64,000 nt of DNA, taken from Candidatus Kapaibacterium sp. (GTDB lineage: Bacteria > Bacteroidota > Ignavibacteria > Kapaibacteriales > UBA961). Location: NCBI GenBank assembly GCA_046328995.1, contig JAXLVN010000003.1, forward strand, positions 431,784-495,783, in the 5' to 3' direction. The notes beneath the pieces are model-generated. The model saw only the letters and a list, made by a program, of their open reading frames with translations, did no database searches and was not told the DNA's origin. Position numbers and translations under genes: made by a program. The number at the start of each line of letters is the position of its first letter. Position 1 is the stretch's first letter. Of this stretch, positions 21,552 through 42,735 are shown piece after piece.

Positions 21552-22268
21552 CTAAAGTTTTCCACGCAAATGTAAAAAACCAAACCAACTCCACGAACCA
21601 TCGACAAAGGAGTGGGTTTTCTCTCGAAAGCTAATGGTATAGGTATCTTTAGTCGTACCGAGATACGTATTATTCATATAGTTAAGTTCAAGTTCAAATT
21701 TACGGATTGTTTCAATTTGTTTTGAGGTTAAATATGAGGAATTAGAACTAAAAGTAGGATCATCCGATTGCCATTTTGCATAGTATTTACCCTTGCGTTT
21801 GTGGATAGTCAGGGTGTCAGATTCAAAATTAAAGCAACCACTGGTTTGCATTGTAATTGTATACCTTTCTTTGTCTTGCAATTGATCGATGATAGGAATG
21901 TACGTTTCTTTCTTATAATCGAGCGAATCAGCGCAAATACTAGTATTATAAGACTTAAAGGTCGAAATATAGATTGTTTTGGATTCTTCTTTTTTATAAA
22001 TTGATCTATAATGAATCGTATATAGTCCTGTATCTAAAGGGCTTAGAGTGTGAATCGCGTTCGTTCCATCGAGTGTTCGAAATGGCATGTTATTTTTTAA
22101 AACAATGATAGAATCATATAATAATGGAGGTATTCCAAAATATGACACCCTGTTATTGGTAATTTCAATCTGCAAGCTAGCATAAGGCTGACCTGTCGTA
22201 GACTTCATTCCCAGAGAGCTGAAAATTAATGCAACTAATAAAAACACTAGTATATTACAATTTTTCAT
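21552..22268 (-). CDS. Hypothetical secreted protein
   Basis: Signal peptide MKNCNILVFLLVALIFSSLG; no recognisable motifs. Confidence 0.4.
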   Translation of the reverse strand: MKNCNILVFLLVALIFSSLGMKSTTGQPYASLQIEITNNRVSYFGIPPLLYDSIIVLKNNMPFRTLDGTNAIHTLSPLDTGLYTIHYRSIYKKEESKTIYISTFKSYNTSICADSLDYKKETYIPIIDQLQDKERYTITMQTSGCFNFESDTLTIHKRKGKYYAKWQSDDPTFSSNSSYLTSKQIETIRKFELELNYMNNTYLGTTKDTYTISFREKTHSFVDGSWSWFGFLHLRGKL

Positions 22269-22386: not shown

Positions 22387-23388
22387 TCACCCCAAAATCG
22401 TCCTCCACGCCCCTATAATATCCGCCTCTTCCTCTTCATGCGTATAACGCTCGCTCATGTATTCGGCTGCCGTTTTGGCTCGCGTTTGTAGAGCGGAAGG
22501 GTCGGTGTCATATTCTTTGAGAAGCTTTTCCATGACGGTAATAAACCCAATACTGTCATGCGCTTGCACGGGGAAGCTGAGTTCGGGAAGCATGAATTCC
22601 TGAGCGCCGTAGCCGTGATATCCTGCCACAATACAACCGCACATCATCGCCTCTGCGGGAGGTAATTGAAAGCCCTCAATCGTTCCAAACGTCAGAAAAA
22701 ACGCCGACTCACGCATGATGCGCGCGACGTCGGGTTCCATGAGTCCGTCAATCGGCGCGAGCGTCCACCCCTTGAGCGCACCCTTGAATTTCAGCCCATT
22801 AATCACACGCTGAATATCCATGAAATTCTTGCGCGGCATGAACGCAATTTGTTTCTTTTTCTTCGGTTCGTAATAATACTCATCATGGTTAATTCCCAAG
22901 TGGATACGGTGCACAGGATGCTGCGGAAAGACGCCCTGAACGAAGGCGCGGTTATGTTCGGACACGACAAACGTAGCCAGCACATCAGGACTCAGATACG
23001 GCGTTTCAAGTCGTTCAATCGCAAGCGGATGATGATCAAAAGTATAATGCGCGTTCTGATTGAGAATCACTTTTTTGAGCCGGCTGACATCGAGCCGTAC
23101 TTTGCGGCGGATACCGAGGAAATCTTTTCGTTCCATCACCACTTCCCGGGCAGCATGCGCGCCATAAATCTCGGGAAGAACGATAAACTCGCTCTCAGCA
23201 AGCGTTTGCGGGGAGTAATGAACGACAGGAGTCGAATTCTTGAACCACGTACAGCGAAAACCACGCTTCATGTGAAGCACAGCCGCCGAAATCCCATGTT
23301 TATTCAAAATATCAACATGCCGGTACAGCACGCGGATACCGCCAATAGGAGAATTATCATCCGGACTAAGAACGAGTACCTGGGGCAT
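22387..23388 (-). CDS. Glycosyltransferase, GT4-like (group 1)
   Basis: C-terminal ..GTIEGFQLPPAEAMMCGCIVAG.. matches the GT4 E-x7-E / EGFGL-PP-EAMA-G signature. Confidence 0.5.
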   Translation of the reverse strand: MPQVLVLSPDDNSPIGGIRVLYRHVDILNKHGISAAVLHMKRGFRCTWFKNSTPVVHYSPQTLAESEFIVLPEIYGAHAAREVVMERKDFLGIRRKVRLDVSRLKKVILNQNAHYTFDHHPLAIERLETPYLSPDVLATFVVSEHNRAFVQGVFPQHPVHRIHLGINHDEYYYEPKKKKQIAFMPRKNFMDIQRVINGLKFKGALKGWTLAPIDGLMEPDVARIMRESAFFLTFGTIEGFQLPPAEAMMCGCIVAGYHGYGAQEFMLPELSFPVQAHDSIGFITVMEKLLKEYDTDPSALQTRAKTAAEYMSERYTHEEEEADIIGAWRTILG

Positions 23389-25420: not shown

Positions 25421-26962
25421 TCACTCCCACTCAATCGTCGCCGGCGGCTTGCTGGAAATATCATAGCAGACTCGATTGATGCCACGTACTTCGTTGATAA
25501 TCCGATTGCTCATGCGCGCAAGTACTTCGTATGGCATGTGATACCAATCTGCCGTCATGCCGTCGGTGCTGGTCACCGCGCGGAGTGCGCACACATTTTC
25601 GTAGGTGCGTTCATCGCCCATGACGCCAACGCTTTGGACGGGCAGAAGCACCGCAAATGCTTGCCATATCGAACTATACAAGCCGGCAGTACGAATTTCC
25701 TCAAGGTAAATATCATCTGCCTTGCGGAGAATATTCAGACGTTCTTCGGTGATTTCGCCGAGAACGCGGATTGCGAGTCCGGGACCGGGGAACGGATGAC
25801 GTTCGATGAACCATTCAGGAATGCCAAGCAGGCGACCGACATTGCGCACTTCGTCTTTGAAGAGTTCGCGGAACGGTTCGATAAGCGCGAGATTCATCTG
25901 CTCGGGCAGACCGCCTACATTATGATGCGACTTAATCGTCACCGACGGACCCTTCACGCTAACCGATTCAATTACATCAGGATAAAGCGTGCCTTGAGCA
26001 AGGAATTTTGCATCGCCGAATTTCTTTGCTTCGACTTCGAAGACATCAATAAAGGTCTTGCCGATGATTTTACGTTTTTGTTCCGGATCGGCAACATTCG
26101 CAAGGCGGGAGAGGAATAAGTCACTCGCATCGACCACATCTATACTCATTGAAAAATGTTCGCGGAAGAGCCGCTCGATCGTCGTACTCTCATCGGTGCG
26201 CATGAGTCCGGAGTCCACGTGAATACAGTGTAATTGATCGCCAATCGCTTTGTGGAGCAGTACGGCAGCAACCGTCGAGTCCACACCACCGGAGAGCGCG
26301 CAGATCACACCGCCTGTGCCGACTTTAGATCTGATCTCAGCAAGTTGTGATTCTACAAATGCTTCCGCGTTCCAATTATCCGTACATCCGCAGATGATAC
26401 GCACAAAATTGGAGAGGATAGTCTTTCCTTCCTGACTGTGATGCACCTCGGGGTGGAACAGCGTGCCCCAGATGCGATGTTCTTTATGGCGGAAACAGCA
26501 CAGGGGAGAAGTAGCAGTGTGGGCAATTACTTCGCACCCTGCCGCAAGCTGATTAATATGATCGCCATGACTCATCCACACAATACTGTGCGCACTGATA
26601 TTCTGCAATAATGGATCGTCGTGGATGACACTCAGTTCGGCGCGTCCGAATTCACGATGATCAGACGCAATCACTTCACCGCCAAGCTGATAGGTAATTA
26701 ACTGCGAACCATAACAGATACCGAGAATCGGCACGCCAAGCTCATACACCGCCGTCGTCGAATGAGGCGCTCCCTCACCATACACACTCGCCGGACCACC
26801 CGAGAGAATTATTCCTTTCGGATGTAAAGAACGGAGCTTTTCAGCGGAAATATTAAAGGGATGAATCTCGGCATACACGCCGCACTCGCGCACACGACGC
26901 GCGATAAGCTGCGTAACTTGTGAACCAAAATCGAGAATAATTATACGTTCTGAATGATACAT
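25421..26962 (-). CDS. guaA: GMP synthase (glutamine-hydrolysing)
   Basis: GATase1 domain (..LDFGSQ.., catalytic ..GICYG..), ATP-PPase SGGVDS motif, C-terminal ...KPPATIEWE. Confidence 0.9.
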
Positions 26963-27028
26963 ATCTGCCTTAAAAATAGTAGAATACAAAAAATTTCATG
27001 AATTAATCGCGCGCTTTATTCCTCACCC

Positions 27029-28810
27029 TTACTGAATCACCTGACTAATAAGCGCAACGCTAAAAATTGATAATAAAAACCAACCGACAAAACCCTCAAT
27101 CACCGCTAAATACCGTGCAATGCCGAGCACGGGAATTTCTCCAAAACCTAGAGTAGAGAAGGCATTTAAGCTTGTCGTCGAGGCGTCTAAAAAGCGCATG
27201 AACACGGTCGAACATATCGTCGAGAAGACAATCACTGCGATTCCGCAGCCGATTATGGTGCGTTTGATACCGCGCCGCGTCTGCCACAAGCCGGCCATTG
27301 CCGAGATCCGGCGGATGAACCATCGCTTTGTCCTATACGTAAGCAATTCGAATGAAAAGAGTTGGCGATTGAATAATTTAAAATACCAGGGCAGATGTTG
27401 ATTATGCGTTTCGCAGTATTTACGGTATTGCTTATACTTTTCCTTCGTCGTCACCCGCACTTCGGTTTGCTCGTTGAAGAGCTCGAGAATGGTCTTATTC
27501 CTCGCGAAATAGTCCATATACAGCCGCACTTTATGAAAAAAACTCTCCCGTGCGTAGAGTCCGCTTTGGTACGGCATAAAAAAGTAAATCACTGCAAAGA
27601 CAGCCATCACCCAGGCGCTCCAGAAAAGTGCTTTCACGGGATTGGCGCCATAGTCGCAGAAGGTTTGCAAAAAGGCATTCATGAGCCAGTTGAAAAAACG
27701 GTTGAGCGTGAAATTCCGACGCACTTCGTGGGAGAGAAAGATGGTCTCGATGTCTTTCCACTCGATATAGCATTTATTGGCCGAGAGCATATTACCCTGT
27801 GCTTTGAAGGCAGTGTAAAAGGTTGAATAGGCAGTAATTAGCGTACTGTATAAGAATTCGTCCTTGAGCTCGGCGACGGAATTTCCGGTGATGAATTCTC
27901 CGGTTTCGGGGGCTTGAATGGCAATTTTTTTACCGGCAAATGAGGTCCATTGAACTTTCGCCGCCACGGTATTAAAGGAAAATGCTTCGAGGAGGAGAAC
28001 ATTTTTGAAGGTGCATCCATAACACATGAATTGATTCTGTATGGTGCTTTGAGCGAGCTTGATAGGAGCGGTGGAGATATTATTCATGAAGCGCAAGTTG
28101 TTGTAAATACTTGTGCCTAAGTCCACGAACCACCGGCGGTCATTCGCATATTCTGCGGGCAGAATGAACGTGCATTTGGAAATTTCGAGATCGACAGGAT
28201 TGGTGCGATTAATAAATTCGAGGATTTGCGGGAATTCACTCGTCTTGCGGATGACATACTTAAGCGTGTCGAATCCGGGATTGCGCACTAAATACGGATT
28301 AACGGTAAGAGTGCAGGAATTCAGGGTAATATGATCGCGCACTTCCTGCCGGATGAACCGACATCCATTCTGAAATTCACAGTGATGAAATTCCGTAAAA
28401 TCGACCGTATTATTAACGAGAATAACGACTTGCTTGAACGTACAATCGCGGAACTTGAGGCGTAAACTGTTGCATTTGAGGAAGGATACTCTGTCTTCGA
28501 AGACAAAGTCACGCACGAGATACCAAAAATCATCGGCGATGCTGCAGTTATCAAAGACGACGGCATATTTCACATGGATTTTGCGGCCGCCGTTGTCATA
28601 GCGGATATCATGTGCATTGTCGATCTCACGATTGAATTTGAAAGTACAATTCTTGAAATAAATCGTTTGAACGCTGTTGTGCATCTGCGGCTCGCCATGC
28701 TCGAGTTCATCGAAGGTTTGCATGAAATTCAGCGTCGCACCTTCCTGCACCCGCGCACCCGCCTGCAGGCATCCAAACAAGAAAAACAGCAGATAAAGGA
28801 GCTTTTTCAC
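27029..28810 (-). CDS. Membrane protein with a C-terminal cation-channel pore module (TM - pore helix - TLGFGE filter - TM) and a large N-terminal Cys-ladder beta-helix-like ectodomain
   Basis: Signal peptide; about 450 aa with recurring F..C.F rungs (FKNCTFKF, FDNCSIADDF, FRDCTFKQ, FHHCEFQNGCRF, LNSCTLTV, ISKCTFIL, GCTFKNV); one TM, a roughly 100-aa loop, then IIGCGIAVIVF...NAFSTLGFGEIPVLGIARYLAVIEGFVGWFLLSIF (K-channel-like P-loop). Confidence 0.6.
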   Translation of the reverse strand: MKKLLYLLFFLFGCLQAGARVQEGATLNFMQTFDELEHGEPQMHNSVQTIYFKNCTFKFNREIDNAHDIRYDNGGRKIHVKYAVVFDNCSIADDFWYLVRDFVFEDRVSFLKCNSLRLKFRDCTFKQVVILVNNTVDFTEFHHCEFQNGCRFIRQEVRDHITLNSCTLTVNPYLVRNPGFDTLKYVIRKTSEFPQILEFINRTNPVDLEISKCTFILPAEYANDRRWFVDLGTSIYNNLRFMNNISTAPIKLAQSTIQNQFMCYGCTFKNVLLLEAFSFNTVAAKVQWTSFAGKKIAIQAPETGEFITGNSVAELKDEFLYSTLITAYSTFYTAFKAQGNMLSANKCYIEWKDIETIFLSHEVRRNFTLNRFFNWLMNAFLQTFCDYGANPVKALFWSAWVMAVFAVIYFFMPYQSGLYARESFFHKVRLYMDYFARNKTILELFNEQTEVRVTTKEKYKQYRKYCETHNQHLPWYFKLFNRQLFSFELLTYRTKRWFIRRISAMAGLWQTRRGIKRTIIGCGIAVIVFSTICSTVFMRFLDASTTSLNAFSTLGFGEIPVLGIARYLAVIEGFVGWFLLSIFSVALISQVIQ

Positions 28811-28870: not shown

Positions 28871-30268
28871 TCAATGAAAAAACCGTTTCATCACATCATT
28901 ATAGAGTACAAATGCCATTAAGCCGAGGAGTAGAAACATTCCAATTTGCTGAAACGCCATCTTTGCCTTCACCGATACTTCGCGGCGCAGAACTGCTTCA
29001 ATGATAATGAACACCAAGTGTCCGCCATCGAGGGCAGGGATGGGAAGAATATTGAGCACAGCGATGGAAACAGATAATTTAGCAACGAGTTCGATGAAAT
29101 CCCAGAACCCGCGTTGTGCGACTTGTCCCGCAATTTGCATAATTTGCAAAGGTCCGCCGATGGTCTCCTTAAATGACACCACACCGCTGAAAATTTTCCC
29201 GATAATTCCAAAGAACATACCGACTTGATGTACGGTTTCATTCCAACCAATAGCGAGCGATTCGCCAAAGGTATAGCTTTTTTGCACTGCCGGTCCATCA
29301 AAAATCATCGCATGTCCGAGTCCTACCCGCCAGCGTTTGACGCCTTCATCATAGGTAGGTGACATCGTCGCCCTCTTTTCCTCTGTACCATGTTTCCAGA
29401 CAAGCTCAAGGGGCTTGCCTTGATTCTCGGTAATGAGCGTGATAAACTGTTCAGCACCGATCACCGGAACTGCATTCGCCGAAAGTAATGTATCGCCTGT
29501 CTGAACGCCTGCTTTCCCGGCAGGCATATTAGCCTCGACGGCGACTACGATAATTTTAGAACCGACAGGGAACATGCCGAGACCTTTTTTCTGCGTCAAG
29601 GCATCTAAAAACAAACGTCCATTCGTTGTTAAGCGTTCGGTGCGTCCGCCACGTTCTATGGTAACTGTGCGATCGGCACCCACATCTTTGATGGTTAATT
29701 CTTCAATTAAATTTTCCCAGGAAGTAATCCGCGATTCACCAATAGAGGTGATTTTATCACCGGACTGAAAACCGGTTTTTTCTGCAACTGAATTTTTCTC
29801 AACATACCCGATCGAGGTAATAGGATGAATTTCCTTGCCATTAAATACAGCCACCGCGAAGAACACGCTAATGGCGAGCAAAAAATTCATAATCACACCG
29901 GCACTAATTACAAATGCTTTTTGGAGGGCATTTTTAGAACGGAACTCATAGGGTTGAGGCGCGGTTTTGAGCTGTTCGGAGTCCATACTTTCATCAATCA
30001 TCCCGACAATTTTCACATACCCGCCAATAGGTAAAAGACAAAGGCGATAATCGGTATGACCGCCGCCGTCCCAATCGTCGGCTAATTTCCCGAAGGTGAA
30101 GCCGGTGATTTTATTCCAGCCGAAAAGGCGCATACCCATACCGAGTGCGAACACATCAGCACGCATACCGCACATACGGGCAGCGGCGAAGTGGCCGAAC
30201 TCGTGAAGGGAAACGATAATTCCTAAAGCACCAATAAATGCAAGTATTTCCTGAATCGAAAAGCCCAT
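28871..30268 (-). CDS. rseP: RIP metalloprotease RseP (site-2 protease)
   Basis: HEFGHF zinc motif at the N-terminus, PDZ region, LDGG motif near the C-terminus; conserved dxr-rseP neighbourhood. Confidence 0.85.
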   Translation of the reverse strand: MGFSIQEILAFIGALGIIVSLHEFGHFAAARMCGMRADVFALGMGMRLFGWNKITGFTFGKLADDWDGGGHTDYRLCLLPIGGYVKIVGMIDESMDSEQLKTAPQPYEFRSKNALQKAFVISAGVIMNFLLAISVFFAVAVFNGKEIHPITSIGYVEKNSVAEKTGFQSGDKITSIGESRITSWENLIEELTIKDVGADRTVTIERGGRTERLTTNGRLFLDALTQKKGLGMFPVGSKIIVVAVEANMPAGKAGVQTGDTLLSANAVPVIGAEQFITLITENQGKPLELVWKHGTEEKRATMSPTYDEGVKRWRVGLGHAMIFDGPAVQKSYTFGESLAIGWNETVHQVGMFFGIIGKIFSGVVSFKETIGGPLQIMQIAGQVAQRGFWDFIELVAKLSVSIAVLNILPIPALDGGHLVFIIIEAVLRREVSVKAKMAFQQIGMFLLLGLMAFVLYNDVMKRFFH

Positions 30269-33618: not shown

Positions 33619-34359
33619 TCACCACGCCCGAATAACCTCCACTCCAAACGAACGCCCCACAGCCGTCGAAATCGTCCCGGTCAGATCATGCGCCAGTATT
33701 TCAATCGTCACGCCGCGGGAGACTGACCACCGCGCGCCGAGATTCATAACGAGATGAAGAGTATTGGTTGCTGCCGGAGAGGCGAGGATGATTTCCGGCA
33801 GAAGTGCTATCGTCGGCCCGATGGATTGTTCGACACCGGCATATCCTGCAAGCGCATGCGCTCCGCCGTAGAATCCGCCATGAAGAGCGGTCGCGCCGAG
33901 GGGTGAACGGAAATTTTTACTGATTGAAATCCAGCCGCTCATCGAATGTGATTGCAGGTACTCCTGACTGAAGAGTCCGTTGGACCGGGAGGAAATGCCG
34001 ATGGCGATGGCAGGGAAGGTGCGCTTTTCGTCCACAAGGCGGTACCTCGCGCTGATGGCGGGCATCAATACTTCAACCGGCGCGGCGCTGATGGCATTCC
34101 GTGCTGTAGCAGTGAGAGCGAGATTGAAATTTTTAAAAATTGCAGCCGAGAAGTCTGCCGTGAGATTACCCTGCGGCGCAATTCGTATTCCAAGGCAGTA
34201 GGTGGAGACAGGAAGTACACCGGCAGTAGGCATATCCACGATTGATCGGGACTCGAATAATGCAGCGCTGCCGGCAGTCGCCTGCGCTCTGGTCGTGGGG
34301 ATATGGGCGAAAGCAACAAAAAGGCAGAACACGAGAAAACAGGAGGATGAACGACACAT
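33619..34359 (-). CDS. Hypothetical outer-membrane beta-barrel protein
   Basis: Signal peptide, alternating beta-strand pattern, C-terminal ...GVEVIRAW with a terminal Trp. Confidence 0.45.
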   Translation of the reverse strand: MCRSSSCFLVFCLFVAFAHIPTTRAQATAGSAALFESRSIVDMPTAGVLPVSTYCLGIRIAPQGNLTADFSAAIFKNFNLALTATARNAISAAPVEVLMPAISARYRLVDEKRTFPAIAIGISSRSNGLFSQEYLQSHSMSGWISISKNFRSPLGATALHGGFYGGAHALAGYAGVEQSIGPTIALLPEIILASPAATNTLHLVMNLGARWSVSRGVTIEILAHDLTGTISTAVGRSFGVEVIRAW

Positions 34360-34819: not shown

Positions 34820-36028
34820 TTATTCCTTCACCAATTTCTGCATCACCGATTCACGACCGCATTCAGCGCGAAGGAGATAGACTCCGCTTGCCAGATTGCT
34901 TGTTGGGATATGTGCGACGTCATCCGAACATTCAACAGACTGCATCAATTCACCCATGACGTTTACGAGGGTCAGACGGATGGTGCGCCCATGCCATTGA
35001 GCCGGAAAACGCAGGGATGTGCCTGTATTTCCTGCGGGTTGCGGGAAAATTTTCACTGAATTTTGCGCTTCGTATTCTTCTTCTTCTACACCAACGGGCG
35101 TATAGGGCTGGCGATAGATGCCGTCATCGGTGCCGGCGATCAGATAATCTTTGGTAATGATGAGACTATTGACACTCGGATTACCTAAATTTTGACGGAA
35201 TTGCTGCCACGAGCGGCCACTGTCAGCCGAGGCAAAGACGCCGTCTTTACCCGTACCGACATAGAGATAATTATATTTTCCACCCATGGTGATTGCACGG
35301 ATTTCGCGTCCTGCGATGCCGGCACTGATGTCGGTCCAGGAGCTGCCGCTGCTGAGTGAACGGAATGCGCCGCCGCCAAGTGTACCGGCATACACAAGGG
35401 AAGTGCTTGGAGAATAGAGAGCTTTGACAAATGGATTCGTAACACCGGTATCGGACTTGAGCCATGTGGCGCCGTTATCAGCCGAACGGAAAATACCATT
35501 GCCGAAGGTGCCGGCAAAAATGGTTTCTCCATTCATTACCATAGAATAAATCCATTCATTGCTTAGCCCTTTTGCTTGCCAATTTGCTCCATTGTCTGTC
35601 GAGACATAGATGCCTGTCACATTCGTACCGGCAAAGAGATAGGCGCCGTCACGTACCATGAGCGACTGTACGGAAATTCCTTTCGGAATATTGCCGTTGG
35701 CATCGGTCCAGTTCTGTCCGTTGTCGTCCGAGCGAAGCACACCTTCGCCGGCTGTCCCGCAGAACATTTTATCGCCTTTTGCGATCAGCGTGAAAATCGT
35801 GCGTGTCGGTAATGCTATGCGTTTCCAAGTGTTACCATCGGATTCGAGCTGATAGACACCTTCATTAGTGCCCGCGAAAAGAACGCCGTCTTTCTCGGCA
35901 AAGCAGTAAGCGGAGGTGCCTTGGAAGGACATTTTTTCCCAATTCTGCGCCGATACAGTATTGTTCAAACACAGAAAGAAGGCAAGAAGCAGGGGTAAAA
36001 ACGCAGGTAAACGTCGTAGAATAGTCAT
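34820..36028 (-). CDS. BNR/sortilin-Vps10-like repeat protein with a T9SS C-terminal sorting domain
   Basis: Repeated ..S.D.G.TW.. BNR motifs (SDDNGQNW, STDNGANW, SADNGATW, SADSGRSW). The C-terminal 80 aa (KIFPQPAG...GVYLLRAECGRESVMQKLVKE) matches the T9SS type-A CTD pattern. Confidence 0.7.
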   Translation of the reverse strand: MTILRRLPAFLPLLLAFFLCLNNTVSAQNWEKMSFQGTSAYCFAEKDGVLFAGTNEGVYQLESDGNTWKRIALPTRTIFTLIAKGDKMFCGTAGEGVLRSDDNGQNWTDANGNIPKGISVQSLMVRDGAYLFAGTNVTGIYVSTDNGANWQAKGLSNEWIYSMVMNGETIFAGTFGNGIFRSADNGATWLKSDTGVTNPFVKALYSPSTSLVYAGTLGGGAFRSLSSGSSWTDISAGIAGREIRAITMGGKYNYLYVGTGKDGVFASADSGRSWQQFRQNLGNPSVNSLIITKDYLIAGTDDGIYRQPYTPVGVEEEEYEAQNSVKIFPQPAGNTGTSLRFPAQWHGRTIRLTLVNVMGELMQSVECSDDVAHIPTSNLASGVYLLRAECGRESVMQKLVKE

Positions 36029-36387: not shown

Positions 36388-39300
36388 ATGAGAATACTTG
36401 GTACTCTTTTGTTCATGGCTTGTATCGTTTTGCAATTAAACGCTAATGCGCAGTCCTCCGGCTGGGCGGATTCGGCGGGCTACAAGCAGCAAATTATGCC
36501 GACGAAGTCGATTCGTCAGGTGCTCTATTCTCCAAGTGGAGACAGACTCTATAGTGTCCATCTCGATACACTCTATAGAATTAGTCATTGGGATGCTGTA
36601 ACGGGGAAACTGCTTCGGAAGCAATCTATTGATTCTTCAGGATATAAGTTACTGTACTCAGTGACAATCGCAAATGATGGATTGACTTACACGGTTTGTG
36701 GTTTGCAGGTGAATGATAGTTGTACAGCTAAAATCTATTCTCTCAACACTGATGTTCTTTTGAATAGCGTAACGTTGAAGTTAAAAAACAGCTCTGAAGT
36801 ACAGGCAAGTACGGCTATCTATGACTCAACGCTTAGAATTTTGCGGGTAAGGTTCGAGGCAAGTGATGTCTATGGCATGCCGCCAAGCGGATCTCGATAC
36901 GGCGGCGTATTTGAATACAGTCTTGTTGATGGTAAACAACAGTTAAAACATTCAGAAAATGGTGTAACGAACAAATGGAGTACTGCTAGTGGAATAAATG
37001 TGTCAGCATGGGTTGGATTTTACCATAAAGTAATACTTAGCTACAAAGGTGAGGTTATAGAAGATACCCGGTGGATGAAATCTATACTTTGGAATGACAC
37101 TATCCCAATTCGAGAAGACCTGCCATTTGATATTCTAGGTTCGCATCCTATATTTAGTCAGTATGCACTGAATTATTTCCCTTTACTTACTCCCGACGGG
37201 AAGCACTTTTGTATGATTGATCATCAGGTGTTGCGTCACAGAACTCTCTCGCCATATGCGTTGGTGTCCACGATTACATTGCCATTTATACCGACTTTTG
37301 CCCAAGTGGCTCCTACGAATAATCATATTCTTATGAGTTCGGGACGTTCTATTATCCTTTATGACATTTTTGCCAATTCTATCACCGATACGCTTTCTCT
37401 GACATTCGAGAGTATTTCGGCGTCATTCAGGCCTCAATCGCATACGGTGGTATTTGCATCACGTGACGGATACATGCGCACTCTTGAGTTGCCTTTTTCA
37501 ATGCCTAGTATTCCCAATGACTTTCGTGCGGACAGTACGACAGCATATACTGATTCTGCCATTACCTTTACCGTGACAACACGCCGAGTACCTCTTCGCC
37601 TTCGATGGGATTTTGGCGATACTACCACGGATTCGACCCTAAGTGTTATTCACCGATATAAATCGCCCGGCACATATTCTGTTCAATTATTTATCACCGA
37701 CTCATCCGGCACGATAGATACGATTATGAAGAAAGACTATATTTCAATACTTCCATCGTTGATTCCTGATTTTAGCGGAACGCCGCAGTATGGCATATCT
37801 CAGCTTGACGTGCAATTCACCGATAAATCCAAAGGGAATATTATTACATGGTTGTGGGATTTTGGAGATAAACAGGTCGATTCCGTGCAGAATCCGAAGC
37901 ATACATACAGTGGTCATCGCTATTACAATGTGACGTTGACTATCAGCGACGGATTTACGGTTGCTACAATTGTGAAACCTATGTTTATCAATCTCGATAC
38001 AATTCCAAGTAACTCGATAATGGTACGGCAAAGGTGGATTTCTGGTGCTCTCTCATATATTGGTACCCCGGGAAATTGGAGGCGAATCGAAAACACATTC
38101 TCAAAAGGAATTCTTGGTAATGATTCCAAACTCTATGTATATAGTCGAGAATGTGGTGTTGAATCGTATAAAGGTCCTGATCCAACTCCTTTAGTATCGT
38201 ATAATTGGCAACAAAGTATTTCGGTATTTGACAGTTCGACAAGTCAGTGGAAAATCGATAAATCCTATTCACCCCCTGATTACTCACCTATGAATATCTG
38301 TCAAGGAACAAACTCGGCATACAGTGGATTCCAAATTATTCGATATAGAAATCGGTATGTTACATCTTTTACTGGCTGGGTGAGGTCATTGTCATATATT
38401 ACCATTCCTTCAATAATGTTCTTTTCTAATGGGCGAGTTTTTACACCCTCCGGCTGGACACATGACTTCAATGGTGCATTTTTGCCGGACGGCACTGATA
38501 TCTACCTCTTCAATCACGGTACTTCTACCTCCATTCAGTTTTTTATTGAAGATAGTGTTCTCATCGCCCGAGACTCGATGGTCGGTGAAGTAATGAAGCC
38601 GCTCGTATCCATTGATTCACAGAATGTTAGTATTATTTCTAACCTTTATTCCGGCAAGGGGGATAGTACGCGATGGATGATTGTACGCACCTATTCATCA
38701 GAAGGGCTGCTGCTTAGTGAGAAGAAGATTGTAAAAACGCGGACTATCCATTTGACTGATGCAGCGAACTTCGGTTTGGGGGATTTTCTAGTCACCGGTT
38801 GGGTTACTTCAACCGACTCTCTTGGAATTAAGCACGACTCCGGGTATATCGCCAAGCTTGGTTCAGACGGTCGCATCGCCTGGGAGTATTGTGCACCAGC
38901 GTGGAAACAATTTAAGAAAATAGAAAAACTCAGCACGGGACACTATGCCGCTTGGGGCATTCCTCTCGATGGATTTAATCATGGTTTCCTTGCTTTCCGA
39001 AGCGACGGAACAATCCTTTCGGACAATCGGCTTGTCGGCGCACAGAACGGATTTTCGCCGTCGGATTTTGTGGTTGGTGCAGGTACCAATTCGCTGTGGT
39101 TCATAGGTTCGGAAAGTGTGCCGAATCAGGGTCAGCGAGCAGCGGTGTATTTATGTACGAATCCCATGTCAGCAGTGACTTCCGTAGCTGAGGGAGAGGC
39201 GTCGGATCGTGCACCGTCAACATTCTCGGCGGAGGTATTTCCGCTTCCTGCCGTTGACCGAATGACGGTACGGCTGAGCATTCCCCGCGCAGCAAACGTG

Positions 39301-39474
39301 CGTGTATCGATGGTATCGGCTCTTGGCACGGAGCAGGAATATCCGGCGGAACATGTCAATGCAGGTATGAATGAATTCACGCTATCGACCGCTGCCCTCC
39401 CGACCGGGATGTACATTCTCTGTATTCGTTTCGATAGCGAAAGGTGCGTGTGTCCGGTAGTTGTCCTTCGATGA
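36388..39474 (+). CDS. Large secreted protein (paralog A) with two PKD domains and a T9SS C-terminal sorting domain
   Basis: Signal peptide; WDFGDTTTDS...YKSPGTYSVQL and WLWDFGDKQVDSV..HTY..YYNVTLTISDG PKD signatures; C-terminal VFPLPAVDRMTVRLS...GMYILCIRFD T9SS CTD. Confidence 0.75.
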   Translation: MRILGTLLFMACIVLQLNANAQSSGWADSAGYKQQIMPTKSIRQVLYSPSGDRLYSVHLDTLYRISHWDAVTGKLLRKQSIDSSGYKLLYSVTIANDGLTYTVCGLQVNDSCTAKIYSLNTDVLLNSVTLKLKNSSEVQASTAIYDSTLRILRVRFEASDVYGMPPSGSRYGGVFEYSLVDGKQQLKHSENGVTNKWSTASGINVSAWVGFYHKVILSYKGEVIEDTRWMKSILWNDTIPIREDLPFDILGSHPIFSQYALNYFPLLTPDGKHFCMIDHQVLRHRTLSPYALVSTITLPFIPTFAQVAPTNNHILMSSGRSIILYDIFANSITDTLSLTFESISASFRPQSHTVVFASRDGYMRTLELPFSMPSIPNDFRADSTTAYTDSAITFTVTTRRVPLRLRWDFGDTTTDSTLSVIHRYKSPGTYSVQLFITDSSGTIDTIMKKDYISILPSLIPDFSGTPQYGISQLDVQFTDKSKGNIITWLWDFGDKQVDSVQNPKHTYSGHRYYNVTLTISDGFTVATIVKPMFINLDTIPSNSIMVRQRWISGALSYIGTPGNWRRIENTFSKGILGNDSKLYVYSRECGVESYKGPDPTPLVSYNWQQSISVFDSSTSQWKIDKSYSPPDYSPMNICQGTNSAYSGFQIIRYRNRYVTSFTGWVRSLSYITIPSIMFFSNGRVFTPSGWTHDFNGAFLPDGTDIYLFNHGTSTSIQFFIEDSVLIARDSMVGEVMKPLVSIDSQNVSIISNLYSGKGDSTRWMIVRTYSSEGLLLSEKKIVKTRTIHLTDAANFGLGDFLVTGWVTSTDSLGIKHDSGYIAKLGSDGRIAWEYCAPAWKQFKKIEKLSTGHYAAWGIPLDGFNHGFLAFRSDGTILSDNRLVGAQNGFSPSDFVVGAGTNSLWFIGSESVPNQGQRAAVYLCTNPMSAVTSVAEGEASDRAPSTFSAEVFPLPAVDRMTVRLSIPRAANVRVSMVSALGTEQEYPAEHVNAGMNEFTLSTAALPTGMYILCIRFDSERCVCPVVVLR

Positions 39475-39630: not shown

Positions 39631-42600
39631 ATGAAAATCATTTATCTATTTTTTATAGCCATATTATGCATTGTAGATCATCAATCTTCCAATGCGCAGT
39701 CCTCCGGCTGGGCGGATTCGGCGGGCTACAAGCAGCAAATTATGCCTCTCAAATCTATCATGCAGGTGCAGTATTCACCGGGAGGAGATACGTTGTACAC
39801 GGTGAGCCGGGACTCGCTCTACAGGATCGATCACTGGGATGCTGTGACGGGTAAGCTGCTGAAAAGACAGACAATAGTAGCGAAAAAGTTAGTGAAGATG
39901 CTGTCGGTAACCTTGTCAATGGATAGACAGACTTATGTCGTCTGTGGTACCGAATCAACCAATACGCTTCATTTTCTCATTTATTCAATGACGACCGACA
40001 GCTTGATGTTTGAAATTAAGCCCCAAAGGTCATTTGGCAATAGCAATTCATATGTGGATTGTTCGGGAGATGTCGAGACGTCGTTGGGCATCATTACCAT
40101 ATATTTCACGCTTGTGGATAATCAACTAGGCCCTGATGGTCCGAGCGGTAGTCGTAACGGCCAGATTTCGCGCTACAAAATTCAGGATACTACCCTACAA
40201 TTGATAGGGACGCATTTGGGAGCGGTAAAAAAAGTCGCCTATACACCAAACAAAAACATCTACACATGGATATCCTACCAGGTAGTAAAAAAGTATTTTA
40301 GATCTAGCCTGTTAAACCATTCTGAATCTATGAACTACAACTGTTCAATGAACGATTCTCTTGTGATACAAAACGAACTACAATTTGAATGGGAGGGTTC
40401 TAATGTTGTAAATAGTGATTATGCATTGAGTTATTATCCGGTGCTGACGCCGGACGGTGCACATTGTTTTTTTATAGAAGGACCACATCTGCATCAGTGG
40501 TCAGTGGCTCCTTTTGCATTTCTCTCGACGAAGAATATTGGATTTAGCTCTACGTATGTGCTTGCCGAACCTGAGGGTACCCATGTCATGTTTGTCAAAG
40601 GTAAGACCTTATATTTTTACCATATAGCGTCATCGACAATGTCAGATACCTTTCAATTGACTTCACCACCGGTAATGTGTGCATTCCGTCCAAATACTAG
40701 GGAAATGGCATATTGTACAGCGTCAGGGAACCTATGTATCAGTAATCTCAAGTATCGAATTCCCTCGATTCGTACTACATTTACAGCGACACACACACTT
40801 CTGTACAAAGATTCGACAACAGTTTTCTCCGTAGTCAGGAGCAAGAAGTATCGGCACTATGAGTGGAATTTTGGCGATGGTAGGCTAGGAAAGGGTGAAG
40901 TGGTGCCGCATATATATCAAACGAGCGGAACATATACTATCGTATTGATAGCCACCGACAGTCTAGGGCAGAGTGATACAATAGAGCGCAGAGACTACGT
41001 GCGGGTATTGCCGATGTTAGAACCACGCTTTACCGGCTCGATTCGCTATGGCAACGCTCCTCTTACGACACAGTTTACCGATGAGTCTTTAGGAGCAATC
41101 ACCTCGTGGGAATGGAATTTTGATGATGGAACGAAAGATACTGTGCCGCATCCGAAGCATACTTTTCAGGAACGACGGTATTATTCTATCACATTGAAAA
41201 TCTCGGACGGACTAAGTACCAAAGTGCTGACCAAGTTTGCTTTTGTGAATGCAGATACGATGTATGTGAATACTGTGCGTATTCATACACGACTAATCGA
41301 TGCTACGCAAAATCTAATACGAGGAATAGAAGGGTCATATCAATCCGATGATTGGTATAAAAACAAATATACAAAGGGCGGACTTACGGAAGCAGGAGAT
41401 CTCATTGTTTATAGATCTGAATGTTATACTCGTGTAGGTAGTTATGGTGCTACATTCTATTATCCCAAGCAAGGAATATTGTCAATCTCTGCCGATGCGA
41501 AACAATCAAGTACGTTTTTTTCTCAATTGGCTCATAATCCAAGTTCGTCAAATATTTGTGATATTACTTTTACTAATCCCGGTCAAATGATAATCCGTCC
41601 CCGAGATGGCTCGTATATATCTTCGTTTGATCCAATTTATTGGACTGCACCGAGTGGTCAATCGCCTCATGGAATATATATTTCCAAAGTAGGATTTTTT
41701 AAGCCTATCGGGTGGTCGAGTAATTTCGATGCTGCATTCCTACCGAATGGTAACGATGTGTATGTCTTTCGTACTGTCAAAGGAACAATCATAGATTTCT
41801 TCAAATCTGATACCATCCTCATCGCCCGTGACTCGATGGTCGGTGAAGTTATGAAGCCACTCGTTTCGATTGATTCTCAACAGGTAAGCATCATTTCTAA
41901 TCTCAATTCCGGCACAGGTGACAGTGCTCGATGGATCGTACAGCGGACGTATTCATCAGCAGGACAACTCCTTGAGGAAAAACATATCCTGAAGAATATC
42001 AGCAATGTACGTCTGATGGATGCAGCAAGTCTCGGCTGGGGAGAATTTCTCCTTTCAGGATGGGTCACGACGACCGATTCCCTCGGTGTTCGCCGTGACT
42101 CGGCATACCTCGCCAAGCTTGGTTCTGATGGCCGCCTTGCATGGGAGTATCTGACGCCTACGTGGCGGCAATTCAAGAAAGTAGAAAAACTGAGCACCGG
42201 GCATTATGCAGTCTGGGGAATTCCGCAGGATGGCTTTAATCATGGCTTTGTAGCGGTGAAGAGCGACGGAACAATCCTTTCGGACAATCGGCTTGTCGGC
42301 GCACAGAACGGATTTTCGCCGTCGGATTTTGTGGTTGGTGCAGGTACCAATTCGCTGTGGTTCATAGGTTCGGAAAATGTGCCGAATCAGGGACAACGGG
42401 GAGCGGTGTATTTTTGTACGAATCCCATGTCAGCAGTGACTTCCGTAGCTGAGGGAGAGGCCTCAAACGGCTTTCCGGCATCATTGTCGGCGACGGTGTA
42501 TCCACAGCCCGCCGTTCATAGTATGACAGTACGACTGACTGCGCCGCGAGGAGGAAAAGTTCGGGTTGCAATTGTATCAGCTTTGGGCACCGAACAGGTG

Positions 42601-42735
42601 TATCCGGAGGAAGAAGTCGAAGCAGGGACAAGAGAATTCATGATATCAACAGCAGCATTATCGACCGGAATGTACACACTCTGCCTACGTATGGACGGCG
42701 AAATGTGCGTGCGTCCGGTGGTGGTGGTGCGGTGA
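39631..42735 (+). CDS. Large secreted protein (paralog B of 36388..39474) with two PKD domains and a T9SS C-terminal sorting domain
   Basis: Same architecture as A: WNFGDG..GEVVPHIYQTSGTYTIVL and WEWNFDDGTKDTVPHPKHTF..YYSITLKISDG PKD signatures; C-terminal VYPQPAVHSMTVRLT...GMYTLCLRMD T9SS CTD. Confidence 0.75.
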   Translation: MKIIYLFFIAILCIVDHQSSNAQSSGWADSAGYKQQIMPLKSIMQVQYSPGGDTLYTVSRDSLYRIDHWDAVTGKLLKRQTIVAKKLVKMLSVTLSMDRQTYVVCGTESTNTLHFLIYSMTTDSLMFEIKPQRSFGNSNSYVDCSGDVETSLGIITIYFTLVDNQLGPDGPSGSRNGQISRYKIQDTTLQLIGTHLGAVKKVAYTPNKNIYTWISYQVVKKYFRSSLLNHSESMNYNCSMNDSLVIQNELQFEWEGSNVVNSDYALSYYPVLTPDGAHCFFIEGPHLHQWSVAPFAFLSTKNIGFSSTYVLAEPEGTHVMFVKGKTLYFYHIASSTMSDTFQLTSPPVMCAFRPNTREMAYCTASGNLCISNLKYRIPSIRTTFTATHTLLYKDSTTVFSVVRSKKYRHYEWNFGDGRLGKGEVVPHIYQTSGTYTIVLIATDSLGQSDTIERRDYVRVLPMLEPRFTGSIRYGNAPLTTQFTDESLGAITSWEWNFDDGTKDTVPHPKHTFQERRYYSITLKISDGLSTKVLTKFAFVNADTMYVNTVRIHTRLIDATQNLIRGIEGSYQSDDWYKNKYTKGGLTEAGDLIVYRSECYTRVGSYGATFYYPKQGILSISADAKQSSTFFSQLAHNPSSSNICDITFTNPGQMIIRPRDGSYISSFDPIYWTAPSGQSPHGIYISKVGFFKPIGWSSNFDAAFLPNGNDVYVFRTVKGTIIDFFKSDTILIARDSMVGEVMKPLVSIDSQQVSIISNLNSGTGDSARWIVQRTYSSAGQLLEEKHILKNISNVRLMDAASLGWGEFLLSGWVTTTDSLGVRRDSAYLAKLGSDGRLAWEYLTPTWRQFKKVEKLSTGHYAVWGIPQDGFNHGFVAVKSDGTILSDNRLVGAQNGFSPSDFVVGAGTNSLWFIGSENVPNQGQRGAVYFCTNPMSAVTSVAEGEASNGFPASLSATVYPQPAVHSMTVRLTAPRGGKVRVAIVSALGTEQVYPEEEVEAGTREFMISTAALSTGMYTLCLRMDGEMCVRPVVVVR

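Follow-up and report, generated by a model that had tools for sequence, protein, structure and literature searches.

HalA is the effector of the Hailong anti-phage system (Tan et al. 2025, Nature 643:794). The protein joins pentapeptide repeats to an IRK K+-channel domain (PMC13586616) and assembles into a tetramer whose channel is gated by DNA; its crown, located in the cytoplasm, binds oligodeoxyadenylate (oligo-dA) at the subunit interfaces and holds the channel closed; HalA reportedly lets Na+ in (PMC13434031). The two-module design of pentapeptide crown and K+ pore is already known from HalA. To our knowledge, every bacterial K+-type channel characterised to date takes its regulation from the cytoplasmic side, for example through RCK domains, cyclic-nucleotide-binding domains or the DNA-binding crown of HalA. 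We examined a gene at 27029..28810 on the minus strand of a 64,000-nucleotide stretch of Candidatus Kapaibacterium sp. DNA (contig JAXLVN010000003.1; here called the window). An earlier note on this DNA had described its product as a K+-channel-like pore fused to an exported, Cys-rich beta-helix and had called the architecture unusual. From the composition of the protein, its conservation, the modelled fold of its solenoid and the sequence homology of its pore, we propose, with a probability of roughly 0.6, that the gene encodes a subunit of an inner-membrane cation channel, probably a tetramer and probably K+-preferring, which would be gated from the periplasm.

That the open reading frame (ORF) is real is borne out by the eight homologues first found by a word-index protein search, all of them full length, which align with it end to end at 34-99% identity. 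These include metagenome-assembled genomes (MAGs) labelled Candidatus Kapaibacterium, and the named proteins are each called "hypothetical protein". An exhaustive HMMER scan built on the alignment of the eight, with counts given as clusters at 50% identity, returned 825 clusters at E<=1e-3, 646 at E<=1e-10 and 545 at E<=1e-30, most of them matching end to end and with a typical length of 560-620 amino acids (aa). A motif scan covering a single genome for each species placed the family in 156 species, and 80 loci listed from these are the basis of the taxonomy and neighbour counts given below. The homolog distribution, which the earlier note had suggested examining, is narrow in taxonomy: nearly all of the 80 loci belong to the Bacteroidota (Cytophagales, Bacteroidales/Marinilabiliales, Flavobacteriales and Saprospiraceae), the Ignavibacteria or the Kapabacteria/Chlorobiota, with Ancylomarina salipaludis and Plebeiibacterium sediminum as cultured hosts. 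There is no whole-protein model in Pfam or NCBIfam, and literature searches on pentapeptide repeats with K+ channels and on TLGFG returned nothing on these proteins. The Bacteroidota-Ignavibacteria-Kapabacteria group thus harbours a family of considerable size that lacks annotation. Two loci (L027 and L062) come from MAGs labelled Candidatus Competibacteraceae (Gammaproteobacteria), which could be mis-binning or rare horizontal transfer; every other listed locus with a classification finer than "bacterium" belongs to the Bacteroidota or their relatives.

The strongest conservation lies in the C-terminal module. In the window protein a T-x-G-[Y/F]-G signature follows a putative amphipathic pore helix between two transmembrane (TM) helices, M1 and M2, and the T-L-G-[F/Y]-G filter is kept in 131 of 133 full-length relatives, all of these proteins stopping 31-38 aa downstream of it. 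Nowhere in the protein is conservation higher than in the pore and M2: S547, G555, G557, G573, G576, W577, F583 and Q590 are invariant in 86 aligned sequences, and at least 90% keep the pore-helix residues N549 and F551. Pfam Ion_trans_2 (PF07885) aligned with residues 524-590 over model positions 4-76 of 79 (16.9 bits against a curated cutoff of 22.5; E=0.006) and matched 70 of 80 relatives at E<0.01 (best E=3.8e-9). Profile comparison with hhalign placed F540-F574 on the pore helix, TVGYGD filter and start of M2 of KcsA (E=4.9e-4, probability 32%), in register with KcsA residues 62-97, and residues 529-579 on residues 37-90 of NaK (E=3.6e-3), again with pore helix and filter in register. When the C-terminal profile was searched against PDB sequences, five of six matches were K+ channels (AKT5, E=0.66; NaK2K, E=2.6-3.7), and the family member P0040 likewise retrieved mostly K+ channels, among them NaK variants aligned over M1, pore loop and M2 at E=0.08 and above. 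None of these scores is strong by itself, but the in-register signature and the extreme conservation together point to homology with K+-channel pores, which is the clear reading of these sequences. The K+-channel-like C-terminal module of the earlier note has thus held up.

Whether the loop between M1 and M2 re-enters the membrane, the test named in the earlier note, was argued from sequence. M1 (519-540) and M2 (567-589) are each of membrane-spanning length. If both cross the membrane, the intervening 26 residues would leave and return to one and the same face, and, like the corresponding stretch of KcsA and NaK, they comprise a 12-residue amphipathic helix and the filter. This arrangement argues for a re-entrant pore loop. 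In both AlphaFold2 (AF2) models described below, DSSP assigned one unbroken helix through M1 and the pore helix, covering 515-551 in the earlier model and 515-552 in the later one, then a loop at 553-563 and the M2 helix, and in the later model the predicted local distance difference test (pLDDT) score here was 89-94. No K+ channel was among the listed fold matches of the AF2 monomer models. The complete GFG or GYG filter suggests a preference for K+.

The N-terminal domain was modelled as a beta-solenoid. A first AF2 run with nine sequences, in which the membrane part had a pLDDT of 67, was superseded by a run with 80 family sequences (pLDDT 91; predicted TM-score, 0.82). Here residues 26-308 form short strands in a regular repeat, with a low-confidence loop at 178-195, and build a right-handed solenoid with stacked interior residues, modelled with confidence and as the earlier note had expected. 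Fold comparison gave scores of 12-15.4 with right-handed parallel beta-helices (tailspikes, GH110, PL6 lyases, NosD and PfbA; ~200-250 residues aligned), 13.7 with the pentapeptide-repeat protein 6fls (193/216 residues, 3.0 Å), 12.5 with AlbG and 12.4 with EfsQnr. Pentapeptide_3 (PF13576) matched 17 of 80 relatives (best E=1.7e-11), Pentapeptide_4 seven and Beta_helix two. In the relative P0104 the Pentapeptide_3 match reached 31.2 bits, above the cutoff of 27, and mapped to window-protein residues 120-155, where the Cys ladder has its core; further pentapeptide-repeat matches were to MfpA (E=0.02) and, for P0040, to QnrB1 (E=0.007). The window protein itself had no Pentapeptide_3 match at E<=1; the profile searches proposed in the earlier note recovered the pore in this protein, below the cutoff, and the pentapeptide repeats in some of its relatives.

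The Cys pattern that had drawn attention to the domain is not a chance one. The arrangement hydrophobic-x-x-C-x-hydrophobic occurs six times in residues 25-310 against 1.3 expected (5000 shuffles, P=0.0004). The strict form F..C.F is found only three times (F52, F120 and F141), two looser rungs at C113 and C266 come in addition to the six, and the "seven or more" strict rungs of the earlier note are therefore too many. Successive ladder Cys residues are 34, 24, 10, 21, 22, 47 and 53 aa apart; three of these seven spacings fall within the 20-25 aa that had been claimed and the other four (34, 10, 47 and 53) do not. The ectodomain is also smaller than the 450 aa originally given, the exported part comprising ~370 aa (residues 20-390), of which ~285 form the solenoid and ~77 are helical. 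The F-x-x-C-x-F unit is two consecutive pentapeptides, in which a central hydrophobic residue is followed by a small residue (Cys) and the next central Phe, and the Cys side chains consequently face the core. The Cys residues at 89, 113, 123, 144, 166 and 213 are each kept in 56-81% of 86 relatives and are otherwise S, V, I, N or T; such free replacement argues against obligatory disulfides, and we rejected a disulfide ladder. The repeats are degenerate, and hydrophobic autocorrelation showed no strong repeat period.

Conservation of the solenoid is sparse. The N-terminal Met aside, only two core Phe residues, F104 and F125, are conserved in at least 90% of sequences, and an enzymatic function was rejected because no polar residue is conserved across the domain. 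Several genomes carry more than one family gene, either in tandem, head to tail (L026, 3479-7121; L027, 4310-7809; L043, 5096-8253), or as two dispersed copies (Saccharicrinis, L060/L075; Raineya, L031/L072). In the paralogue pairs the exported domains are 24-46% identical and the membrane modules 48-72%, a hint that they may form heteromers or differ in the ligands they recognise. The fast divergence of the solenoid between paralogues, taken with its sparse conservation, fits a binding surface rather than an enzyme.

The side of the membrane on which the solenoid lies was predicted from the topology signals. The N terminus, KKLLYLLFFLFGCLQAGA, is probably a Sec-type signal peptide with a putative A-x-A cleavage site, and a hydrophobic N terminus is present in 116 of the 133 full-length relatives, the remaining ones looking like truncated gene calls. 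A lipoprotein with an LFGC lipobox was rejected, as its Cys is unconserved even among close homologues. The window protein has three hydrophobic segments of TM length (391-414, 517-543 and 567-593), the first of which, TM0, precedes the pore module and carries an invariant F405 and a Y409 kept in at least 90% of relatives. The loop between TM0 and M1 is basic, with a net charge of +14 in the window protein (residues 413-518) and a family median of +6; the family median for the exported region is -4.5. If the signal peptide is cleaved, the solenoid and the three helices that follow it lie in the periplasm, and TM0 together with the basic loop leads to the same prediction, in agreement with the placement outside the cell made in the earlier note. 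TM0 would run from outside to inside and M1 from inside to outside, the pore loop would face the periplasm, and M2 would end in the cytoplasm, which is the canonical K+-channel orientation.

The segments on the two sides of TM0 differ in conservation. The most conserved extracytoplasmic motifs, SANxCYxExKDIET and, directly before TM0, FLKxFCDYGTxPxKS, both lie in the three juxtamembrane helices. The TM0-M1 linker is poorly conserved and varies in length from about 45 to 105 aa across the family. In two relatives (P0026 and P0120) it has only about 45-50 aa instead of ~100, so that most of the basic linker is dispensable in some lineages. The first of the juxtamembrane helices (residues 299-348, about 27767-27916) have a weak, non-significant resemblance (E=0.056) to PDB 8ebf, "Cytoplasmic membrane protein", in a TPR-like hairpin of that structure.

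The top Foldseek match in the PDB of the 80-sequence model was 9nyi_A, "HalA in complex with oligodeoxyadenylate" (E=3.2e-3, probability 0.91; 405 alignment columns, 333-aa chain). The HalA equivalog profile NF051894 matched five of 80 relatives (best E=1.2e-5), as in P0040 (86-170) and P0046 (132-198), where it scored 24.7 and 23.6 bits over model positions 52-124 of 338, about one tenth of its 250-bit cutoff; the P0040 match overlaps the Qnr match of the same protein. We considered whether these matches lay in the channel module of a TLGYG subgroup and ruled this out, as they fall in the solenoid. The window protein had no match to NF051894, HalA was never retrieved in the PDB sequence searches, with no sequence match to its pore, and PADLOC gave no match. 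The adjoining genes of the window gene are rseP and guaA, with no HalB nucleotidyltransferase beside it. From the missing HalB neighbour, the missing PADLOC match, the housekeeping context and the presence of a signal peptide and TM0, we conclude that the family is not HalA.

Taken together, these features suggest the following arrangement. The signal peptide would export the pentapeptide-repeat-like solenoid and the three conserved helices to the periplasm, TM0 would bring the chain back to the cytoplasm, and the basic helical linker would join TM0 to M1, the pore helix, the TLGFGE filter and M2. Four solenoids would then crown the pore on the side of its selectivity filter, where a periplasmic or envelope ligand could control ion flow by binding or by being lost. 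Transmission of the signal would fall to the juxtamembrane helices, which would sit above an outer mouth with almost no turret, and we infer that the crown is coupled to the outer mouth or filter through these helices and not through the linker. The structural reading of the earlier note is thus largely right, and gating from outside, which it had also implied, is plausible. The pattern of evolution is sensor-like: a variable cytoplasmic linker, highly conserved juxtamembrane helices and a fast-diverging exported domain. HalA, with its DNA-gated cytoplasmic pentapeptide crown, provides a parallel in which the crown is on the opposite membrane face from the one proposed here. We raise only tentatively the further suggestion that the family may represent the first periplasm-gated K+-type pore-loop channel of prokaryotes. 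It would be an inside-out HalA, in which an envelope polymer or a ligand in the periplasm, as long as it is attached to the crown, would keep the channel shut or keep it open.

Several observations weigh against this periplasm-gated channel. The TM-scores of the HalA Foldseek match are low (0.15 and 0.24). The window protein falls under the curated Ion_trans_2 cutoff, and of ten relatives scanned singly nine scored 16-25 bits and one had no match, three passing the cutoff (23.0-24.6 bits). Matches to solved K+ channels are weak throughout (HMMER, E=0.08-4; hhalign probability, <=32%). Nor does a GFG or GYG signature guarantee K+ selectivity, given that HalA reportedly admits Na+. One full-length relative, P0111, has lost the filter motif, with ILLAAG in place of TLGFG, and may be a non-conducting member or one of altered selectivity. 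Finally, there is no clue to a ligand, and no gene neighbour is conserved across the 80 listed loci; the commonest neighbour cluster is found at 14 of the 80, consistent with gene order shared within one lineage.

Of the other explanations, the one that survives best keeps the K+-type channel and makes the solenoid only a structural spacer or an assembly or localisation domain, with gating by voltage, by lipids or through the basic linker (anionic lipids or nucleotides). The linker is strongly basic and helical and occupies the position of the Kir slide helix, and HalA is gated from the cytoplasmic side; the linker is, however, the least conserved part of the membrane module, in length as well as in sequence, whereas the periplasmic juxtamembrane helices are conserved almost like the pore. 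We consider this explanation unlikely. It is improbable that the pore-like module is non-conducting and serves as an anchor and tetramerisation scaffold, displaying a beta-helix that binds or processes envelope polysaccharide in the manner of pectin-lyase-fold enzymes, adhesins or NosD. An anchor would not need the degree of conservation seen in the filter, pore helix and M2, and the solenoid has just its two conserved Phe residues and a surface that is the fastest to diverge. A HalA-like abortive-infection or "guard" effector, in which a periplasmic polymer keeps the channel shut until phage or envelope damage removes it and depolarisation follows, could draw on the Foldseek match, the profile matches on the solenoid of five relatives, the two building blocks shared with HalA and the tandem or multiple paralogues of some genomes, but is highly improbable in view of the negative PADLOC result, the low profile scores confined to the repeat region, the lack of a nucleotidyltransferase or conserved partner, the housekeeping neighbours in the window, the absence of any tblastn match in plasmid and phage collections, and the apparent confinement of the family, on the listed loci, to one bacterial group.

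Table 1. Coordinates of the gene and its predicted parts in the window (residue numbers refer to the window protein)
Feature	Window coordinates	Strand	Details and basis
Whole gene	27029..28810	-	593 aa, GTG start; stop codon 27029-27031; ORF list
Signal peptide, residues 1-19 (KKLLYLLFFLFGCLQAGA)	28754..28810	-	Read from sequence; putative cleavage after A-G-A
Right-handed periplasmic beta-solenoid (predicted), pentapeptide-repeat-like, residues 25-310	27881..28738	-	Buried Cys C55, C89, C113, C123, C144, C166, C213, C266
Three juxtamembrane periplasmic helices (predicted), residues 312-388	27647..27877	-	AF2 helices 318-338, 341-365, 369-388; conservation profile
TM0, extra TM helix, predicted outside to inside, residues 391-411	27578..27640	-	Hydropathy maximum 2.06; AF2 helix 391-411
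Basic cytoplasmic helical linker (predicted), residues 412-514	27269..27577	-	Charge count; AF2 helices, pLDDT 66-88
M1, outer pore helix, residues 515-540	27191..27268	-	Ion_trans_2 alignment 524-590; NaK alignment; hydropathy
Putative pore helix, residues 541-552 (LDASTTSLNAFS)	27155..27190	-	hhalign to KcsA residues 62-74; HMMER to NaK2K, AKT5
Selectivity-filter signature TLGFGE, residues 553-558	27137..27154	-	Sequence; family conservation
M2, inner helix, residues 564-592	27035..27121	-	AF2 helix 564-592; conservation; one residue to protein end

The gene (Table 1) belongs to a same-strand housekeeping run in the order RNase G, dxr, rseP (28871-30268), the channel-like gene, guaA (25421-26989) and an amino-acid permease. 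Elsewhere in the window, a 402-aa protein at 34820-36028 (minus strand) combines Sortilin/BNR-like repeats with a C-terminal Por_Secre_tail, a type IX secretion sorting domain, which fits a host of the Bacteroidota group. Three minus-strand ORFs, at 21552-22268, 22387-23388 and 33619-34359 (238, 333 and 246 aa), had no Pfam match at E<=1e-5, and the plus-strand neighbours at 36388-39474 and 39631-42735 are large ORFs (1028 and 1034 aa) in a stretch of lower GC content (0.415-0.45).

What sets the family apart is a diversifying beta-helix on what is predicted to be the outer face of a very conserved pore, in at least 545 clusters at 50% identity. If the solenoid gates the pore, these proteins would allow Bacteroidota and their relatives to couple envelope or extracellular cues directly to the membrane potential, and under the more tentative inside-out version the state of the envelope, contact with a surface or attack by phage would be turned directly into a change in that potential.

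Each of the two modules differs from its described counterparts. Compared with the pentapeptide-repeat proteins MfpA, Qnr, AlbG and the Clostridium botulinum protein 6fls, the repeats of the family are degenerate and the coils are ~21-24 aa long instead of 20, and the domain is exported (as predicted) and tethered to a channel-type module. Like KcsA, NaK/NaK2K and KirBac, the pore module has the order M1, pore helix, T-x-G-[Y/F]-G-[D/E] and M2, and it shares with two-TM prokaryotic K+/cation channels a similar filter-to-M2 spacing and conserved glycines 18-21 residues after the filter. Unlike in those channels, a turret is almost absent where M1 meets the pore helix, a junction one to two residues shorter than in NaK; the module lacks a cytoplasmic C-terminal domain, adds the N-terminal TM0 and a large exported domain, and scores at or below the Pfam cutoff. 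Control of a tetrameric pore-loop channel by an extracytoplasmic ligand-binding domain is a feature of the ionotropic glutamate receptors and GluR0, in which the sensor has the periplasmic-binding-protein fold and the pore is inverted, its pore loop entering from the cytoplasm. In the family described here the pore is predicted to be in the usual orientation, and the sensor would be a beta-solenoid.

The closest comparison remains that with HalA, which likewise carries an N-terminal pentapeptide-type beta-helix and a K+-channel-type pore in one polypeptide. The architecture is to that extent less unusual than the earlier note had it, although we found no published description of a periplasmic placement for such a solenoid. 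HalA is a tetramer in which the crown gates the channel; that crown is cytoplasmic (the membrane side being taken from its description) and binds oligo-dA from the partner HalB. In the present family, by contrast, the signal peptide and TM0 are predicted to place a larger solenoid in the periplasm, and the gene has housekeeping neighbours, with neither HalB nor another nucleotidyltransferase gene adjacent. If the proposed gating is correct, the two systems form a natural comparison, with the same two modules acting on opposite sides of the membrane. Thus, on the predicted topology, the family is a periplasm-facing version of the crown/pore design first characterised in HalA.

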